The notes under the pieces are model-generated. The model did not search any database. It worked only from the letters and a program-made list of their open reading frames with translations, and was not told the origin of the DNA. Below are positions 13,604 to 22,078 of a stretch of 64,000 bases of DNA, in pieces. Made by a program: the position numbers and the translations under genes. Numbering within the stretch: position 1 is the stretch's first letter; every line of letters begins with the position of its first letter. Source of the stretch: an uncultured delta proteobacterium (GTDB lineage: Bacteria; Desulfobacterota; Desulfobacteria; Desulfobacterales; JAHEIW01); contig CAVPNL010000006.1 in assembly GCA_963706575.1 (NCBI GenBank), forward strand, positions 224,001 to 288,000, read 5' to 3'.

Positions 13604-14130
13604 ACACGATCGGCCAAATCCCGCAGATTGCCCAACTGCTTAAGGGCTCAAACTATATTGATGTAAAAACGATAGAGGGGCAAACCTCTCTGCGCCAGTT
13701 TATTGCTGCGATGCTGTCTTACTATCCCCGGTGGATCGTATTTCTATACCGTATTCGCACCATCCTCGTTAAACTGCTCGGCCTGGTTAAACATCCGGCG
13801 CCGGAAGCACTCCCCAAACTTGGCCCGCAAGATGTCTCTTTTGTGGTGGGTGAAGCGGTAACCTTTTTCACGGTGCGGCTGGCAGAAGAAAAACGCTTTT
13901 GGGTCGGCGAAACGCCCGAGGATAAGCACCTGAGTGCCTATTTTGGTGTGGTTGTCGAACCCTTGCAAGATCATCGCAAACGCTTTCACGTGGCGACTAT
14001 CGTTTATTACAAACACTGGACCGGACCGGTATATTTTAATTTGATTCGCCCATTTCATCATTTAGTAGTTGGCAGAATGATGCGGGCCGGCGTTCAACAG
14101 GCCCATCGGGGCGAAGCCCCTAATGCGTGA
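13600..14130 (+). CDS. DUF2867-like protein
   Basis: DKHL, YFNLIRPFHHLVV. Confidence 0.7.
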   Translation: MNTIGQIPQIAQLLKGSNYIDVKTIEGQTSLRQFIAAMLSYYPRWIVFLYRIRTILVKLLGLVKHPAPEALPKLGPQDVSFVVGEAVTFFTVRLAEEKRFWVGETPEDKHLSAYFGVVVEPLQDHRKRFHVATIVYYKHWTGPVYFNLIRPFHHLVVGRMMRAGVQQAHRGEAPNA

Positions 14131-15487
14131 TTTTTATCACCACCAAAGTCATATCGTCTTCGAGTTTAACGTCTTTCTGAAAATGCTTTAATGAATTCAG
14201 GATCGCATCCTGGATGTCGTTTGCGGTCTTTGTGGCATTGCGGCGGATAATTTGGTGAATCCGCTCCTTGCTGAACATCTCACCTCCTGGATCGCGAGCT
14301 TCCCAGATGCCGTCTGTGGCGATAAGGATGATTTGTCCCGCTGCGAGTTCTTGTTTCGCTTCCTTGAAATCCGTATCTTCAAAAACTCCCAACGCTAAGT
14401 TGTTGCCGCCATTAAGGTCGCTAAAGGTATCTGTAGCCGGGTCAAAAATCATAGCGGGCTCATGTCCGGCATTTACCCATCGTATGGTTTTATTGGGTCT
14501 TTCGATTTCGGCATAAAACAATGTCATAAAGCGACCCGAGTCTTTGACGTCTTTTGCAAGCTGCCGGTTTACATCTGAAACCACCCGGTCGATGCGGCCG
14601 AAAGCAGAACACCGCTGCCGGATAAGGGCACGTGCAGTCGCCATTAACAGAGCCGAAGGAATGCCGTGGTCCGAGACATCTCCAACGACCACACCGATTT
14701 TTCCCTCCCCGGGGGTTCCGACTTCCAGAAAATCATAATAATCGCCCCCGGTTTCATCACAGTAGATACTTTTTCCGGCGATATCCAGCCCCTCAATTTG
14801 CGGATTTGTTTTTGGCAGCAGATTTTGCTGGACCTCCATAGCCAGTGAAAGTGAATGGCGAACCCGCTGATGCTCTTTGTCCAGGGCGGCCATGGCCTGC
14901 TCTCTGGCGTGAACAAAATACCGCAGGAGAATAAAAACGATTGCAGAAACGCCACCGATGTTCATTACAAATGAAAAAACGACAAGGGTATTCGAAAGCG
15001 CGCCCTGCTGCCAGCCGCTGCCGCAGGGTTGAAGGCCTGAACTAATCATTAGCAGAACATAGGCAATAAACCAGGGGATTGATCGGGTGGTGCCGGCAAA
15101 CATTAAGGCACCGATTGGCGCAAGGATTGACCAGAGAACGACTGCACCGGAAGCGGTAAAGCCTCCGAGACTCCACTGGAGTAAAAAGGGCAGGATTAGA
15201 ATGAGTGTCAGCTGGCTGCGGCAGAAAAATTTATAGTGCTTTGTTTTAAAAAAATACAGCAGGCTTACCGCTGAAATGAAGGAATAGCTTAAGGGAATGC
15301 TCCCCGACACCGGGAGGCCAAAAAGTAAATATCCAAAGCCCCAGACGATCCCCGCGATAGTGTAGATAACTGCCAAAAATATCAGAACGGCTTTGCGTAC
15401 CCGTTCTTCTTCGGTGTCCGTTGTGAAGCTGCCCGCTTTTGAGAGGCGCTCGATCCAGAAATCAATTAAGTTTATTAATTTATCCAA
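14120..15487 (-). CDS. Membrane-anchored PP2C/SpoIIE phosphatase
   Basis: N-terminal TMs, GGDYYD, GDVSDHG, NAGH, TDG, DDMT. Confidence 0.88.
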   Translation of the reverse strand: MDKLINLIDFWIERLSKAGSFTTDTEEERVRKAVLIFLAVIYTIAGIVWGFGYLLFGLPVSGSIPLSYSFISAVSLLYFFKTKHYKFFCRSQLTLILILPFLLQWSLGGFTASGAVVLWSILAPIGALMFAGTTRSIPWFIAYVLLMISSGLQPCGSGWQQGALSNTLVVFSFVMNIGGVSAIVFILLRYFVHAREQAMAALDKEHQRVRHSLSLAMEVQQNLLPKTNPQIEGLDIAGKSIYCDETGGDYYDFLEVGTPGEGKIGVVVGDVSDHGIPSALLMATARALIRQRCSAFGRIDRVVSDVNRQLAKDVKDSGRFMTLFYAEIERPNKTIRWVNAGHEPAMIFDPATDTFSDLNGGNNLALGVFEDTDFKEAKQELAAGQIILIATDGIWEARDPGGEMFSKERIHQIIRRNATKTANDIQDAILNSLKHFQKDVKLEDDMTLVVIKITH

Positions 15488-15631
15488 AGCGCTGATTAAT
15501 TCTCCTGTTTCTGCAATACCATTCCAGTTCCTAACTTTTTCGATATAAACATAGATCCTCGGGCCACAAAATTTGTATCGAACCGCAATTTTGAAAAAGG
15601 TTACATTGTTTATTTGTAGATTTTTCCAGAT

Positions 15632-16834
15632 TCAGAACACGGGCATGGGCATCTGGCCCCAGTAGTTTCGCGGTGCCGTGGATTCAACATTCTGCACTTT
15701 TCCATTGGCGGTATCCACATCCACCCGTAGCAAGGGTAAGTGTTTGACCGTGAAGGCCAGTGCTTCGTTGCCTGAAGCGTACTCCCCGTTTGGCCAGGTC
15801 AGTTGAGAGAAAATCAGCCGCATGGTGCCATCCCCCGTTGCGCCCATCATCTCATCGTGACCGCGGCGACTTAAAAATGGAAAAATAAACCCGATTACAG
15901 CGCCAAACGACCGCCGGGACCGCATGCGCATAACGGACATATCAGGCTGGGCAAAAAGAGCTTGCATCATGTATTGTTTGGGCATGATATGTACCATGAA
16001 TCCTTTTTGCCCCTGCTGTTGTAATTTTTCGATAGCGGCGGCAACAGCTCTGTCCTGAAAGGCGAAATCGATAATACTTTGCATCGATTCATCGGTCTGG
16101 GGCATTATCGAAACCGCCGTTAGCTTTTTTTCAGGAATATATAGTATGGATGTTTTGGAAATTGTATAACCGTGCAGACCAAACGCCCCCGCAGTAAACA
16201 ACACCAGGCAGACCCAATAAGCCAGCCCCAGCGCCAGCTTTTTCGAACGGATCCAACCGAACAGAGAGCGAAAAATTTTAGCGCCCGGCTCACCCGGGAG
16301 AAACATGGCCGTGTGCTCCATGTACGCGCGGTAGCTTTCCCCATGCTTTGCCAGCATACGCTGTTCCTCATACCGCGCCAGCAGATAGTAGACAAATAAC
16401 ATACTGACATACAGGATCAGGATAAAAAAGCGCGGCCAGAACAGGAGCAGGCCCAATCCGGCGATGGCGAGAAACAGATACTGAGGATGGCGAATCCATC
16501 GATACAGAATTCCGGTCACCACACCTTTGCGGCGAAACTTGGCCGCGTAAACCTGGAAAGCGCCGATCAAAAATGCTAGAATTCCAAGGGAGAACAGGGT
16601 TCGACCAAAACCGTTGACAAAATTGAGAAGACTGCTTTTGGAGACGACGGCATGGGGTAAGAAAAAGCCGGTCAGCCAGGCAGTGGCCGGAAAAGCATAG
16701 AGCGCGTTAAGTAACGGGCCATACCCGGCATAGAAATAGGCCGCAAAGGGGCTGATCATGATGATGATTTCGAGCCCGATTAACAAATAAAAAATCACGA
16801 CAGAAGTGCGAACAACTTTTCCTTGCAAACTCAT
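15632..16834 (-). CDS. Isoprenylcysteine carboxyl methyltransferase-family membrane protein with C-terminal extension
   Basis: GILYRWIRHPQY, EEQRM..HGESYRAY. Confidence 0.75.
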   Translation of the reverse strand: MSLQGKVVRTSVVIFYLLIGLEIIIMISPFAAYFYAGYGPLLNALYAFPATAWLTGFFLPHAVVSKSSLLNFVNGFGRTLFSLGILAFLIGAFQVYAAKFRRKGVVTGILYRWIRHPQYLFLAIAGLGLLLFWPRFFILILYVSMLFVYYLLARYEEQRMLAKHGESYRAYMEHTAMFLPGEPGAKIFRSLFGWIRSKKLALGLAYWVCLVLFTAGAFGLHGYTISKTSILYIPEKKLTAVSIMPQTDESMQSIIDFAFQDRAVAAAIEKLQQQGQKGFMVHIMPKQYMMQALFAQPDMSVMRMRSRRSFGAVIGFIFPFLSRRGHDEMMGATGDGTMRLIFSQLTWPNGEYASGNEALAFTVKHLPLLRVDVDTANGKVQNVESTAPRNYWGQMPMPVF

Positions 16835-17014: not shown

Positions 17015-17761
17015 TTATTTTCCAGCACGGATTAATACCCCTTCTGTAGCTGGTGAGCTGTTGAAACCCGTTTTTTTGACCAGTTCAGCATTCACAAAGC
17101 CGGCCCTTTGAAGCATTGCCAGGAAATCCTTTCCCGGTATAGCCCCGCCCTCTCATTGAGCCCAACTCTTAATTATTTTATCTTTTTCCTCGGGCAGCTC
17201 GCCAATGAGAATTTCGTCTGCCACCATCAGGCGGCCGCCGGGTTTTAAAACGCGGTAGATCTCACCAAAAGCCCTGGCTTTGTCGGGGACAAGGTTTAGG
17301 GCCCCATTTGATGTGACAACGTCAAAGTCTTCGTCTGCAAACGGCAAATTTTCAGCAGATCCTTCCTTAAAGACAACATTTTTTAAATCAGTCTTTGAAA
17401 GATTCTTTTTCGCCCGTTTAAGCATCGCCGGTGTTAAATCGACCCCTACCACTTTTCCCGTTGGCCCTGTCATCATCGCGGAAAAGAGCGTATCGACGCC
17501 GGCGCCACAGCCCACATCCAGTACCTCATCCCCTTTATCGACGGACCCCAATGTGAATGGATTGCCCACCCCGCAATATGAAGCGGCAACTTCCGCGGGT
17601 AACGCCTGCAGGAGTTCAGGATCATATTTTAGAGTTTTAAGTCCCTCATGGCCCGTGGGATAGCGAAACAGGCCATCCGGATTTTCAGCGGCCTTCGAAT
17701 ATGTTTTCCAAATCGTTTTTTGAATCCATTTTTTATCTTTAACCGTAAATTGAGTTTCCAT
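17015..17761 (-). CDS. ArsM-like SAM methyltransferase, predicted selenoprotein (Sec203, TGA 17153-17155)
   Basis: SYCGVGNP, LDVGCGAGVD. KSWAQ-TGA-EGGAIPGKDFLAMLQRAGFVNAE...GK-TAA parallels ArsM WxxC.xGA. Hairpin CCGGGAAA-gga-TTTCCTGG at 17119-17137. Confidence 0.82.
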
Positions 17762-18088: not shown

Positions 18089-19828
18089 TTATTCAGTTTT
18101 CCTAATTTCTGCCATTCGCACTAGAAATTGATCGGCCGGCAAAAAATCAACCAGGCGCAGATCGCGTCGTTCCTTTCCCCAACTGTCCAAAAAGATAACC
18201 GTGGGGACACCTTTAACGTTAAATTGACGCAATAAATCTTCATAGACCGGATTGCCTTTTCGGGTGAGGTCAATCTTTATCATGCTAAAATCTGTTTTAG
18301 CCTGTTTGACGATTTCAGGATTATGAAAAGTGACTTCATCCAGTTCGCGACAGGGAGCACACCAGTCGGCATAAAAATCAAGGATCACCGGCTTTTTCAA
18401 TCTCTGGGCATCCACCAGTAACGGTTCCGAGTAGGGCTGCCAGGCGACACCGGGACCGTGCATCACCCATGAACCAATAAGGGCCGTGGCGATGATCAGT
18501 CCGGTTATGGCTGTACCGGTTCTAAGCCACTCGAATCCCCGAAACTCGGCCCGGCTCCGATCTATCCAGCCCAGGTGTAATGCTGCTGCCAAAGCCACGG
18601 CGGACAGTAAGAACACTTTTACGGTACCGGGTAATAACGGCTGAATAAAATAAGCGGCCATGCCCACCAGAATCCAGCCCAAAAGTTTTTTTACCCACAG
18701 CATCCACTCACCGGAGCGGGGAAGTTTGCGCAGCTGTCCTGAAAACAGGGCCAGGAAAAAAAGAGGCAGACCCAGACCGAGGCTCAATGTAAAGAAGATT
18801 AAAAATCCGATCCAGATGCTTCCGATAGTGGCGACCCAGGTCAGCAGACCCAGGATAAACGGGCCGATGCACGCGGAGGCCACCACGCCTAATGTCATTC
18901 CCATAAACAGGCTGCCAAAGTAGCCGGAATAGGATTTTGACGCGGCCTGTGACAAACTGTATGGGAGTCGCATTTCCCAGAGTCCAAAGAGACTGGTGGC
19001 AAAGAAAATGAGTACGGCGGCCACCAGGACGAGCACGACGGGGTGTTGCAGTAAACTTCCAAGCATCCCGCCGCTCAAGGCCGCAATCACCCCGAGCACC
19101 GAGTTGGTGATCGCGAGTCCTCCGATATAACAGGTCCCGTGGATCAACAATCTTCTCTGGTTTTGACCACTTCTACCGCCGAAATAGGAAACCGTAATCG
19201 GGATTAAAGGGTAAATACACGGTGTCAGGTTCAGGGCGATTCCGCCGGCAAAGATTCCCAGAAGTGTCCATATCATCGCCCAGCCCTCTAAGGGCCGTGA
19301 CTGCTGGGGCGCAAGCGATGTTTCAGAAAGCCCGGCCGGAGAGCTGACAACGGGCAAATTCTTTGCGTGCCACTGCGGATAGCCCATGGGATCGCGAAAG
19401 ATATTTTTATAACCCAGTGTTACGGCCACCCGGGCCGCCGAGTCACTGCGGACTCATGCCAGCCCCGCTCAGTAAAACACGATGAAACGATTTTTGTCCG
19501 GCCCCAGAAATTTCTCAAGGGCGCCTTTATTTCGCCAGCGCGACAACCAGGTCGGCTCCATGGGGAAATTAAGGGCGCCATTGATGTGCCCGGTGCGGTA
19601 TTCCCATTCCTGACGGGTGTCCACCAGGAGTACCGTTTCAGGGTCTTTTTGATAGCGGTCCCATAATGCATCGGTGTCAATAATCCGGTAGCCGCCCTGC
19701 TGGGCCTCGGCCAGCACATCGTTCCAGGTTGCCGCCTTGGGGGTGACCACCCGGTTGGTGTGCCAAAGGTAACCGGCAGTAATGGTTATGGCGACTAAAA
19801 CGAAAACAGTTTTTTTAATTGCACTCAT
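18089..19828 (-). CDS. Rhodanese-DsbD(beta+gamma) fusion, predicted two Sec (TGA 19469-19471, 19454-19456), 579 aa
   Basis: IVFY-TGA-AGLA-TGA-VRSDSAARVAVTLGYKN joins two ORFs in one frame. LTPCIYP, ACIGP and WCAPC are DsbD motifs. Two hairpins at 19440-19455 and 19422-19438. Confidence 0.88.
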
Positions 19829-19919
19829 CTTGCCTATTGTCCGGTTGTCGATTCTGAAAAATAATTTATAATATTTTTTGGTAGTACTCCTGGCCAACCG
19901 CCATAAGGCGACATCGGAG

Positions 19920-20597
19920 CTATGCCTCTTTACCTACAGAAATTGGAAACCCCAGGGCTCGCAAGTCCTGGATTCCCTCTTCGAGCCGCACTGCCTGAAA
20001 ACCCCTTGAACGAAGCATCTCCACGGCCTGGATCGAAAGCACGCAGTATGGACCCCGGCAGTATGCCACGATTTCCTGATCGCGAGGCAAATCCAACAGG
20101 CGCAGTTGCAGCTCTTTAAGCGGGATGGAGATGGCCCCGGGGATGTGTCCGGCGTTGTATTCTTCCACCGGGCGGACATCCAGAACCGTGACTGCTCCTT
20201 TCCCAACCAGCTCCAGAAGCGATTTGCGATCAACCGGTTCCATACCCTCTCTTCCCTCCAGAAAGCGACGCTTGATTTGTTCCACCTCCGCCAGTCTGCT
20301 TTCGGCCAGAACCCGCATGGTGAGGAAAAACTCGCAGACCTTTTGATCGGCAAGACGGTAGTGAACAAATAGCCCCTCTTTTTCGGCCTCCACCAGGCGG
20401 GCTGTCCGCAGAACCTGCAGATGCTGGGAGGCATTTGCGACCGTCAAGCCGGATTCTTTGGCCAAAACCTCGACAGTTCGCGGGCCCTGGCACAGCAGAT
20501 CCAACAGCTCCAGTCGTTTCGGACTGGAAACCGCTTTTCCGATTCGTGCAAACTGCTCATAAATTGCATCTTTAAACACACGATTTGGATTTTTCAT
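19920..20597 (-). CDS. ArsR-family regulator fused to rhodanese domain
   Basis: SSPKRLELL, NASQHLQVL, DVRPVEEY..GHIPGA, YCRGPYC. Confidence 0.92.
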   Translation of the reverse strand: MKNPNRVFKDAIYEQFARIGKAVSSPKRLELLDLLCQGPRTVEVLAKESGLTVANASQHLQVLRTARLVEAEKEGLFVHYRLADQKVCEFFLTMRVLAESRLAEVEQIKRRFLEGREGMEPVDRKSLLELVGKGAVTVLDVRPVEEYNAGHIPGAISIPLKELQLRLLDLPRDQEIVAYCRGPYCVLSIQAVEMLRSRGFQAVRLEEGIQDLRALGFPISVGKEA

Positions 20598-20780: not shown

Positions 20781-21346
20781 TTAAAGGCTGGAATTCTGAT
20801 ACATTTTGAGGATTTCTACTTCGCGTGAAAGCCTTATCATGGTGTTCGAAAGTGCGTTAATCAGGCCGTCACCCGTACGAAAATGCTCCTTGTCAGCCCA
20901 GCTATCTTTTAATTGATGCATCCAGCTGTTGGGTGCAGGCGGTACCTTATTCCAGCCGGCATACGGAGCATAAAATAGATAAATATCCCAGGCAACGTGC
21001 CCGTCCCACCCAATACTCTTTGCGATCTCTTTTCCAACAATTTGATCTTGATCGTAAAAATGCCGGAATCTTTTATCACTTAAATACTTAACAGATGGAA
21101 GTGCGGCTTCTATAGAATCATTATCAAGTATTGGAATCCAAACAATTGAAGCAGCGATATCCGCATCCGGAAATTTTGTGATAATTGTCTCGTGTACCGC
21201 CCGGGCACCCTGGTCGCGTCACAATGGACAAGTCGGCGAGAGTAAGGCCAGAAATCGTATTTTCTCCTATTGTTATTAAATTGGTCTTTGAGCGGGTCTA
21301 AAAAGCTGTTCAGCGTTACTATATTGTTTGATTGGTTGATCTCCAT
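20781..21346 (-). CDS. Thioredoxin-fold protein with CxxU (TGA 21219-21221), frameshift near 21260
   Basis: ...LKDQFNNN / IRFLALLSPTCPL-TGA-RDQGARAV...VWIPIL...RHFYD...AWDIYLFY...WMHQL, open to TAA 20781. Confidence 0.75.
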
Positions 21347-21375
21347 TAAACTGGGTCCTTACTTTAAATCTTTTT

Positions 21376-21891
21376 TCAACGAATCATATTAAAAGAAATT
21401 TTACCATTCAGTTTATCCACCACCTGGCGGACGTCAGCCAAACATCACCTGCCTTTCGGATTCTTGTTGGCGCAATCGCAAGCACCGGCCTTCTTCTCTG
21501 CTGCGATTTTTTCAATGATCAACGATCGCCCATTTTTGATGAAATCCTGTTCGATATCATTTACGGTATATCCAAAACAGTAACATATTAGATCATCTAA
21601 CTTATAATCTAAATTCTCAGGAGGTTTATCGGAAATATCAGTCGAAGGTGTTTTGTCATTGGTTTTCAGATTCGCAACATACCCGACTTTAAGCAATGTT
21701 TGACAGATTTTCTCTACTGAAACTGTGGATTTGTCATACGATACGATAGCTTTTTTTTCCGGATAACTTGCAAAAGCCTTTTTAACTCCTGGCAGCTCTT
21801 CCAGAGCGCTTACCACTTTGGGCTCTCAGCCCATTCAGGTCATACCCTGTACCTCTAATTCAATCTCATGGGTTCCGTCTGTTGTCTTCAT
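21376..21891 (-). CDS. HMA domain + CopZ-like Cys-rich (putative 2Fe-2S) domain protein with three predicted Sec (U19, U22, U149), 171 aa
   Basis: LEVQGMT-TGA-MG-TGA-EPKVVSALEELPGV, ICYCFG, CDCANKNPKGR-TGA-CLADVRQVV. Hairpins at 21790-21815 and 21415-21432. Confidence 0.85.
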
Positions 21892-22078
21892 ATTTGGTGC
21901 TCTCAAGGCTAATTATTTGGCTTTCAAGATTTATACAAAAAGGTTATAATCTACCGTTTAAAAGGTCAATTCCAAAACTTAATCGACTTCCTTATATCAA
22001 ATATCTGCCTTAATATGCTTGCCACCTTCTAAATCGTTATAGACCTGATATGATGGTCCGGCTTGCGCACTATTAGTA

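Follow-up and report, generated by a model that had tools for sequence, protein, structure and literature searches.

A 64,000 nt stretch of DNA from an uncultured delta proteobacterium (GTDB lineage Bacteria; Desulfobacterota; Desulfobacteria; Desulfobacterales; JAHEIW01), corresponding to positions 224,001 to 288,000 of the forward strand of contig CAVPNL010000006.1 (assembly GCA_963706575.1) and hereafter called the window, probably carries a real gene for a triple-selenocysteine protein. In this predicted protein an HMA domain is fused to a BFD-like [2Fe-2S] domain, and three in-frame UGA codons would be recoded as selenocysteine (Sec, U) through two hairpins, termed hairpins 1 and 2. Conservation of all three codons and their flanks in relatives, natural Sec/Cys exchanges, domain matches, the Sec machinery of the same genome and the two conserved hairpins agree with the initial annotation of this segment as a triple-Sec HMA plus CopZ-like protein.

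The gene had been placed at positions 21376..21891, which are the exact bounds of a minus-strand coding sequence (CDS) from ATG to terminator (Table 1); the plus-strand reading of the same segment was discarded, its frame being closed. Homologues beginning at the same MK(T) support the start codon. In-frame TGAs stand at codons 19 and 22, where they replace both Cys of the GMTCxxC motif and give GMT-U-MG-U within E-V-Q-G-M-T-U-M-G-U-E-P-K, and at codon 149, where the first Cys of the NPxGxCC motif is replaced and N-P-K-G-R-U-C-L follows C103-Y-C105 and C138-D-C140. All three substitutions, including the last one after CYC...CDC, had been recognised correctly at the outset. Under translation table 11 the sole open reading frame (ORF) has 123 codons (21445..21816), running from a GTG past the second TGA to the third TGA.

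Contigs assembled from three DNA sequencing runs of three studies (90-99% identity) cover the gene and show no difference at any of the nine TGA bases, and UGA-1 is unchanged in the contigs of X1, X2, X3 and X15; contig cover was absent at about 21339-21365 in this read-level check. Strain variants at 21433, 21439 and 21442 fall into the spacer between UGA-3 and hairpin 2, outside the stem, and by our reading of the codons they appear synonymous (GAC to GAU, UUG to UUA, UGU to UGC).

A fourth Sec at the terminal TGA, resembling a 'UXX-star' type C-terminus, was considered because TGA terminates 34 of the 68 distinct tails, in many cases at one and the same position of a conserved tail. This candidate was ruled out: L059/L060 have TAA in its place, the next in-frame stop follows after anything from 0 to more than 33 codons, the sequence past the terminal TGA is conserved among close relatives only, and the window fold contains no convincing hairpin 3' of it.

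Conservation of the UGA codons and their flanks

A search of metagenome DNA yielded 61 loci. Counting the window, there are 16 intact fusion loci, among which L040/L041 and L047/L048 are duplicates; all 16 keep the three TGAs, and none has a frameshift or an extra stop. The three TGAs are also found in L095, L114 and L115, and are kept down to about 58% identity. One further fusion (L061) has a frameshift in the linker, and two (L038, L050) are cut by contig ends and still encode UxxU. The UGAs align with Cys in homologues, sites 19 and 22 corresponding to the HMA CxxC, and the sequence is conserved on both sides of them: the N-terminal strand and GMT precede UGA-1, and UCLADVRQVV extends from UGA-3.

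Natural exchanges between U and C were surveyed in the homologues. Among DNA-verified fusions the only exception is L116, in which a Cys codon at the UGA-2 position gives U-x-x-C. C-C is found in L091-L094 and in 2HU9, the N-terminal domain of Archaeoglobus fulgidus CopZ; the non-fusion rows have U at the UGA-3 site in 58 of 62 cases and C in four, namely L091-L094, which are about 40% identical ('GKCCLKDF'). A natural Sec/Cys pair at site 22 is provided by genome G228, with GMT-U-VG-C and GG-U-C.

Among 41 related genomes, a match over both domains was found in the window's genome only, and 20 have a match to the C-terminal domain (C-domain; E ≤4.3e-19), each with the TGA. These C-domain-only frames are small ORFs of the form MSDLICYCF...NPKGR-U-CLADVRQVV, conserved across and past the TGA; the stand-alone relatives have about 70 residues and are 55-86% identical to the window's C-domain. 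In a sample of 401 genomes of the order, 134 contain a C-domain match (E ≤1e-15), and the rows read that reach residue 149 include the TGA. G000, G108 and G347 have both-domain matches with three TGAs each; G296 has three TGAs and a garbled C-terminus, and in G317 the HMA N-terminus is missing. A non-exhaustive scan of species-representative genomes, based on exact peptide words, added one further fusion, L095 from a Desulfacyla metagenome-assembled genome, and 16 close stand-alone forms, mostly from Thermodesulfobacteriota, with single matches labelled Armatimonadetes, Dissulfurispiraceae and Acetivibrionales.

The window's genome (5.67 Mb, 25 contigs, 91.8% complete) contains the Sec machinery, with a tRNA-Sec (75.2 bits vs the gathering score of 47 bits; ARAGORN anticodon tca), SelB (376.5 bits), SelA (604.8 bits) and SelD (380.3 bits), the three proteins all scoring over their cut-offs and SelD itself having one in-frame TGA. 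SelD occurs twice in the genome (G000:C5:349796-350719 and G000:C3:438965-439886); one copy has the in-frame TGA, and the match at the other locus is split into two parts, the first of which contains a TGA. TGA also serves as an ordinary stop: four of the 21 non-overlapping window ORFs of at least 250 codons end on it, and three of these four have another stop within 0-18 codons.

Two conserved hairpins follow the UGA codons

A stem with a GGA loop had been described 32 and 23 nt after the first two UGAs. It is found in the minimum-free-energy fold, and the distances between the UGAs and the loop agree. This element, hairpin 1 (GCGCUCU-GGA-AGAGC(U)GC), is kept in 15 distinct sequences, with 93.3% of cells paired vs 30-60% in slid controls, and shows two compensatory pairs, e.g. 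a change from GCU/GAG to GCC/GGG in L047. Hairpin 2 (GUCCGCC-AGGU-GGUGGAU), which was absent from the initial annotation, appears in the centroid fold. As GUCCGCC-AGGU-GGUGGAY it is kept in 63 distinct sequences, with 90.7% of cells paired vs 33-67% for a slid partner; there are two compensatory pairs (C-G to U-A in four sequences and C-G to A-U in two), and the covariation score exceeds those of all 500 shuffles. By the distance rules that apply to selenocysteine insertion sequences (SECIS), both hairpins have the expected properties, i.e. a G in the apical loop and a short distance 3' of the UGA.

As there is no other conserved structure in between and hairpin 1 is in range of both codons, one hairpin plausibly serves both UGA-1 and UGA-2. 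The earlier suggestion that one SECIS may serve two UGAs fits these data, with a single conserved hairpin in range of both, and keeps its conditional form. The second UGA had furthermore been reported to sit inside a hairpin of its own, UGGGCU-GAG-AGCCCA. This mini-hairpin does exist in the window fold, but it is not maintained in divergent members, which argues against a functional role: its stem is disrupted in L040, L045 and L047, and for three of the six pairs every departure is an unpaired cell. Probably it is a by-product of the codons GGC-UGA-GAG-CCC. A role as a functional element or as a spacer-shortener was rejected on account of this loss; by our reasoning, the structure would also sit in the mRNA channel of the ribosome during decoding of UGA-1.

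The predicted protein combines an HMA domain with a BFD-like [2Fe-2S] domain

The N-terminal half matches Pfam PF00403 at residues 12-71 with 45.7 bits (gathering score 24.8) and has the secondary structure E-H-E-E-H-E, which confirms the HMA domain; on alignment with HMA domains both UGAs fall on the CxxC positions. An AlphaFold model built from 63 aligned sequences contains two confident domains, residues 7-75 with a predicted local distance difference test score (pLDDT) of about 90 and residues 100-160 at 84-90, while the predicted template modelling score of 0.43 leaves their mutual arrangement undefined. Given the whole-protein model, Foldseek recognised the HMA domain alone. It placed this domain on MerP 1osd with a template modelling score of 0.94 (target-normalised) and a root mean square deviation (rmsd) of 0.8, and found many CopZ and ATPase domains too. 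The best NCBIfam match of the HMA half is NF041115, 'UxxU_metal_bind, metal-binding (seleno)protein', with 62 bits over positions 3-73 of 74.

The C-domain contains six invariant Cys/Sec residues: C103, C105, C138, C140, U149 and C150. Folded alone it reached a pLDDT of 90.6. Its top Foldseek neighbours were 2HU9 (E 0.46, probability 0.77) and then Pseudomonas aeruginosa Bfd. VIA, which is independent of Foldseek, ranked Bfd 4e6k_G first (Z 5.4, rmsd 2.5, 51 of 57 residues, 26% identity); the next unrelated chain had Z 4.0, and 2HU9 had Z 3.1. In sequence searching, 2HU9 was recovered with a profile made from 46 C-domains (E 0.0025). Single-sequence searching of the PDB with the C-domain gave chance beta-2-microglobulin matches only (E about 0.1-0.2) and was disregarded. 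In the alignment with the Archaeoglobus domain, C75/C77 of 2HU9 correspond to C103/C105, C109 to C140, and NPSGR-C118-C119 to NPKGR-U149-C150, and a Lys stands opposite C138. U149-C150 is thereby located opposite the C118-C119 pair. The motif G-R-U-C and the BFD-like fold agree, together with the 2HU9 profile match, with the GxUC pattern of cd10141 (CopZ family, form 1), an assignment by motif and fold. The earlier proposal of an Fe-S/Zn domain holds for its [2Fe-2S] part and fails for its Zn part, the match being limited to residues 74-121 of 2HU9.

From these likenesses we infer a [2Fe-2S] cluster in the C-domain. C103/C105 and C138/C140 are spaced much like the four cluster ligands of Bfd. 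Since these four Cys match the Bfd spacing, U149-C150 would, given Bfd-like ligation, be a free vicinal selenol-thiol pair beside the cluster. In A. fulgidus CopZ the place of C138 is taken by Lys, so that one residue of the CC pair must complete the cluster. The Sec ligand considered in the initial annotation stands as a possibility. A direct Fe-Se bond is, however, unlikely and not the option that we favour, because four other invariant Cys fit the Bfd spacing.

Genomic neighbourhood and partner gene

The coordinates of the features are collected in Table 1. On the minus strand the window holds further neighbours, DoxX-like and rhodanese genes and then pirin-like, WrbA and MarR genes. The tso genes were reportedly defined by Haft and Tolstoy in 2025; TsoB, a known family, carries two Sec in the window (FY-U-AGLA-U-VRS), and a pattern search of the window for TsoA and TsoC motifs found none. 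The ArsM-type gene contains one in-frame TGA (SWAQ-U-EGG) and aligns with 248 positions at the N-terminus of the double-selenoprotein models ArsM/AhpD and ArsM/DUF2284, but has no second domain. A 400-codon ORF for a membrane protein with a weak isoprenylcysteine-methyltransferase-like match (window 14120-16834, minus strand) ends on TGA (...MPMPVF-U-IWKNL), past which the frame stays open for 503 codons and runs into an ORF for a PP2C/SpoIIE-type phosphatase; this segment could encode either one read-through protein or two genes that share a frame by chance.

Table 1. Positions in the window of the fusion gene, its sequence elements and predicted domains, and neighbouring genes.
Feature	Position	Strand	Remarks
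CDS, 171-aa triple-Sec protein	21376..21891	minus	ATG at 21891; terminator TGA 21378-21376; 171 sense codons
UGA-1 (Sec19)	21835..21837	minus	first Cys position of HMA GMTCxxC loop
UGA-2 (Sec22)	21826..21828	minus	second Cys position of HMA loop
UGA-3 (Sec149)	21445..21447	minus	first position of the CC pair in CopZ-N-terminal domains
SECIS-like hairpin 1	21792..21809	minus	7 bp, one bulged U, loop GGA; 25 nt past UGA-1, 16 nt past UGA-2
SECIS-like hairpin 2	21415..21432	minus	7 bp, loop AGGU; begins 12 nt past UGA-3
Mini-hairpin UGGGCU-GAG-AGCCCA around UGA-2	21819..21833	minus	in minimum-free-energy fold; probably incidental
HMA domain, residues 7-75	21667..21873	minus	PF00403; model pLDDT about 90
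Disordered linker, residues 79-97	21601..21657	minus	pLDDT <50; poorly conserved
BFD-like / CopZ-N-terminal-like [2Fe-2S] domain (predicted), residues 99-164	21400..21597	minus	2HU9 profile match, Bfd fold match
TrxCPLU, thioredoxin-motif C-P-L-U partner gene	20781..21346	minus	conserved; -1 frameshift near 21263 in the window
ArsR-family regulator fused to rhodanese	19920..20597	minus	
TsoB, rhodanese/DsbD fusion-like selenoprotein	18089..19897	minus	NF045694, 1007 bits vs cut-off 805
ArsM-type methyltransferase, Sec-containing	17015..17761	minus	best 380 bits, below cut-offs of fused exception models

The most widespread pairing is that of a C-domain gene followed directly by TrxCPLU, which was seen at more than 20 loci. 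TrxCPLU has about 177 residues with the motif LLSPTC-P-L-U-RD (intact copies at L037:1679-2209 and L018:910-1440) and found no Pfam or NCBIfam match even at E 1. Its homologues show CPL-W, C-x-x-C (P0217, P0228) or W-PG-W (P0206) instead; by our reading the W stands for U, and P0206 would be UxxU-like. TrxCPLU is thus a candidate selenoprotein family without a model. In L034, the closest metagenomic relative, whose fusion is 95% identical, the TrxCPLU alignment (L034:1300-1493) stops where CPLU should be, which suggests an internal deletion; the partner may be decaying in this lineage.

Some relatives stand beside genes for metal handling. In L042 a P-type ATPase fragment and MerA (527 bits, cut-off 454) precede the fusion, which is followed by TrxCPLU; in this MerA the GGTCVNVGCVPSK active site and a C-terminal SCC are present, and the N-terminal HMA domain is absent. 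A heavy-metal P-type ATPase lies 1.6 kb away in L044, and in L040 an ArsM-type Sec methyltransferase adjoins the fusion. Both halves are present unfused in a sister species of the same genus (G019), in a mer-type cluster at positions 1-7831 of L130 (contig G019:C22). The contig encodes rhodanese, DoxX-like and cupredoxin-like proteins. The cluster includes a membrane-anchored HMA protein with GMS-U-PA-U, a true NF041115 member (118.7 bits vs 95), weak MerT-like (38.7 bits) and MerE-like (38.8 bits) matches, an ECF sigma/anti-sigma pair, a MerR-family regulator (143.7 bits vs the cut-off of 150.85) and MerA (532 bits, cut-off 454) without NmerA, followed by a stand-alone C-domain gene and then TrxCPLU. 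This arrangement appears to be a selenium-rich mercury operon.

Origin of the fusion

The gene slot rhodanese-DoxX-X-TrxCPLU-ArsR/rhodanese-TsoB recurs in relatives. X is a stand-alone C-domain gene in L015, L018, L020, L023, L029 and L030, and the fusion in the window and in L034, L035, L037, L038 and L050. The shared slot, with or without HMA, implies that a resident gene either acquired the HMA module or lost it; in our best explanation two separately existing selenoprotein genes would have joined to form the gene studied here. The tree of the C-domain (62 columns, poorly resolved) needs 11 changes of the fusion label, of which the well-supported branches force at least two. A single fusion origin was found in none of 200 bootstrap trees, a count to be read in the light of the poor resolution and of several 'stand-alone' rows that are degraded fusions.

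Such degraded forms were seen directly among the 'stand-alone' genes: L052/L120 retain linker remnants, L117 has lost the N-terminus of the HMA domain, and in L123 the HMA core is deleted. This suggests repeated loss of the HMA module with retention of the Fe-S domain.

Alternative explanations and proposed function

If the UGAs terminated translation, the product would be the 123-residue table-11 ORF (GTG 21816 to codon 148), or there would be none, the gene being a decayed pseudogene. Database entries have this appearance: the protein database gave 128 matches, and 107 of the 120 matches listed are fragments of 116-130 residues, 77 of them with exactly 123, which run from [M/V]V.ALEEL to NPKGR and hence are cut at the second and third UGA. 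In 100 of these 107 both the HMA start and CxC...CxC lie in the same fragment, and the source records call some of the fragments 'copper chaperone CopZ' or 'cation transport ATPase'. In addition, read-through is a prediction from sequence. Termination is nevertheless very improbable, since the sequence stays conserved through each UGA and past it, homologues have functional Cys at all three positions, and the fragment would be devoid of the metal loop and of the fourth helix of the Fe-S domain. The conserved hairpins at SECIS distance, the Sec machinery and the 16 of 16 intact loci without frameshift or other stop point in the same direction. In close relatives the three sites are TGA and not Cys codons, and the window's copy is free of decay, which indicates a genuine gene and not a pseudogene. 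A reassignment of TGA to a standard amino acid (Trp or Gly, codes 4 or 25) would account for the W found at the three sites in some gene-caller translations of relatives, among them eight full-length entries (50-87% identical) among the matches listed with W at all three; we read these as gene calls made with TGA as W. This possibility is practically negligible: TGA terminates ordinary genes, as in the four of 21 long ORFs, and this gene itself, homologues have Cys and not Trp at the TGA positions, and tRNA-Sec, SelA, SelB and SelD are all present.

Taking the triple-Sec fusion as the preferred reading, SelB would recode the UGAs via the two hairpins, hairpin 1 acting on UGA-1 and UGA-2, which lie 9 nt apart. 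The product is cytoplasmic as judged by its sequence, and for a metal-handling role the balance tips slightly in favour. The diselenolate HMA site would capture a soft thiophilic metal or metalloid, with Hg(II) as the best candidate and Cu(I), Ag(I) and Cd(II) as possible ones. Redox or hand-off chemistry would come from TrxCPLU and from the Fe-S domain, with a Sec-Cys pair adjacent to its cluster; this step could keep the selenols reduced or pass the metal onward. U149-C150 could either take the metal or relay electrons to the UxxU site, with TrxCPLU as the next partner; comparable pairs are the vicinal Cys-Sec of thioredoxin reductase, the C-terminal Cys-Cys of MerA and the cluster-adjacent disulfide of ferredoxin:thioredoxin reductase. 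Carried to its end, this scheme would be a self-contained selenium-based relay for soft, mercury-type metals, in which the diselenolate captures the metal, the Sec-Cys pair on the cluster (as Se ligand or cluster-coupled selenenylsulfide) receives it or re-reduces the diselenide, and the CxxU partner completes the chain. We regard this complete relay as a doubtful, speculative extension; if true, it would represent a natural Fe-S/selenium redox-metal module and, with the partner, a four-Sec two-gene system, with or without MerA.

The same selenoprotein could instead be a selenol/thiol redox relay and no metal carrier, its UxxU cycling between diselenide and diselenol while the Fe-S domain and the U-C pair pass electrons, with TrxCPLU and the membrane reductase TsoB as partners and reactive sulfur, selenium or arsenic species as substrate. 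Its neighbours in the window (TsoB, ArsR/rhodanese, rhodanese, DoxX-like, ArsM-type; no metal pump or MerA) suit such a function, as does the most constant neighbour of the C-domain gene, a protein with a CxxU, CxxC or UxxU redox motif, and the HMA domain has repeatedly been lost with the C-domain kept (L052/L120, L117, L123). On the other hand, the nearest models are metal-binding (UxxU_metal_bind, MerTP, CopZ, MerP), both halves occur in the mer operon of G019, and the fusion adjoins MerA and a P-type ATPase fragment in L042. Moreover, characterised HMA folds with GMxCxxC loops bind metal and are not known as oxidoreductase sites. We thus consider a pure redox relay unlikely.

Several observations weigh against the triple-Sec fusion with a metal-handling role as set out here, beginning with the fact that the whole case is built on sequences. 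Covariation is thin, with two compensatory pairs per hairpin, and the double-change pair count of hairpin 2 was equalled in 164 of 500 shuffles; the stems lie within conserved coding sequence, and the structures were derived from the same sequences. The window's own folds are unexceptional (z-scores -1.67 and -0.24), and there was no Rfam family match, gut-2 alone being reported with 14.9 bits (E 1.6). RNA-library contigs (X15) extend over 21550-21700 and 21751-21931, but as evidence of transcription they are ambiguous, since the library may contain DNA. Among the domain models, NF041115 missed its cut-off of 95 although the UxxU motif is present. PF04324 (BFD-like) matched residues 101-158 with 18.8 bits, below the gathering score of 26. 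NF047645 'CopZ_Nterm_CC' reached 52.8 bits vs the cut-off of 100 (positions 83-137 of 138), and NF045877 'Csac_0668 family 2Fe-2S cluster-binding (seleno)protein' 22.7 bits vs 190; the protein falls outside both of these families, whose membership takes the whole N-terminal domain including the Zn sub-domain. The fold evidence for the C-domain is modest for a helical domain of 66 residues (E 0.46; Z 5.4); Z below 8 can reflect a common arrangement.

As for the context, TrxCPLU is frameshifted in the window, being one base short in an A-run compared with L035, L037 and L030. In near-identical contigs of two runs a +1 or -2 indel at this spot restores the frame, which implies that the frameshift is strain-specific or an assembly error. 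Only two of 114 loci have MerA as a neighbour (most flanks being 1.5-3 kb). In the window's genome, at 91.8% completeness, the best MerA match stays below the cut-off (344 vs 454), and the HMA-bearing P-type ATPases are far from the gene. The ArsR-type, rhodanese, DsbD-like and ArsM-like neighbours are as suggestive of redox chemistry of sulfur, selenium or arsenic as of mercury or copper.

Relation to known systems and significance

Judged by its motifs and matches, the gene is a fused variant of two known kinds of selenoprotein. That both halves are selenoproteins was already known separately; the fused form is uncatalogued. In A. fulgidus CopZ, an HMA and a [2Fe-2S] domain with the pattern CxC...C...NPxGRCC likewise occur together, whereas the order of the domains is reversed here, HMA preceding Fe-S, so that the architecture is not that of CopZ. 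The Zn sub-domain (about the first 70 residues of 2HU9) is absent, three Sec replace residues that are all Cys there, and the additional invariant C138 is a Lys in 2HU9; a Cu(II)-reducing activity is reported for A. fulgidus CopZ. Bfd (4E6K, 6E6Q; PF04324), the best structural match of the C-domain, differs in having neither the vicinal pair past the fourth Cys nor Sec nor an HMA partner. MerP is the best structural neighbour of the HMA domain, and the MerA proteins next to the genes in L042 and G019 are without an N-terminal HMA domain (NmerA) of their own (matching PRK13748 positions 98-558); compared with MerP and NmerA, the window's protein has Sec for Cys, no signal peptide and no fusion to MerA. 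The NF041115 proteins share the HMA fold in which both loop Cys are Sec, but stand alone with about 74 residues and are membrane-anchored in G019, unlike the apparently cytoplasmic Fe-S fusion described here. With CopZ-family form 1 GxUC the C-domain shares G-R-U-C, the CxC...CxC...UC pattern and stand-alone relatives in the same gene slot, the latter being equated with that family by motif and family name only; here this domain makes up the C-terminal half of a larger protein, which contains two additional Sec.

In the family tables of a 2026 review (PMC13188914) the two halves are catalogued separately, as the UxxU metal-binding protein and as '(2Fe-2S)-binding protein, CopZ family, form 1, GxUC', and the family list of a 2022 review (PMC9312934) contains the same two families. 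The tables of both name the UxxU family 'putative mercuric reductase', credited to Zhang & Gladyshev 2007. NF045877 has its Sec at the second position of a 'CU' motif according to its entry in PMC13188914, whereas Sec comes first in our protein. Of the 119 bacterial selenoprotein families counted there, most have one Sec and a small subset two to three; among the table rows read, an ArsM/AhpD fusion is the only entry with three Sec. Our literature search found no description of an HMA-BFD fusion, which may yet be mentioned in supplements or in Haft & Tolstoy 2025.

The fusion would thus add a three-Sec architecture to a bacterial selenoproteome dominated by one-Sec families, and suggests cooperation between two selenoprotein modules that have been catalogued apart and occur side by side as well as fused. 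Sequences of this family are frequent in sediment metagenomes, with about 100 clusters at 90% identity, and are stored almost wholly as 123-residue fragments, so that a dedicated model for the fusion would correct many annotations. A natural UxxU HMA site with a further Sec beside a predicted Fe-S cluster would be useful for work on metal-selenium chemistry and on the service of two UGAs by one SECIS. Finally, the mer-operon context of the unfused halves, together with the CxxU partner, provides a lead on the possible use of selenium by anaerobes against metals of the mercury type.

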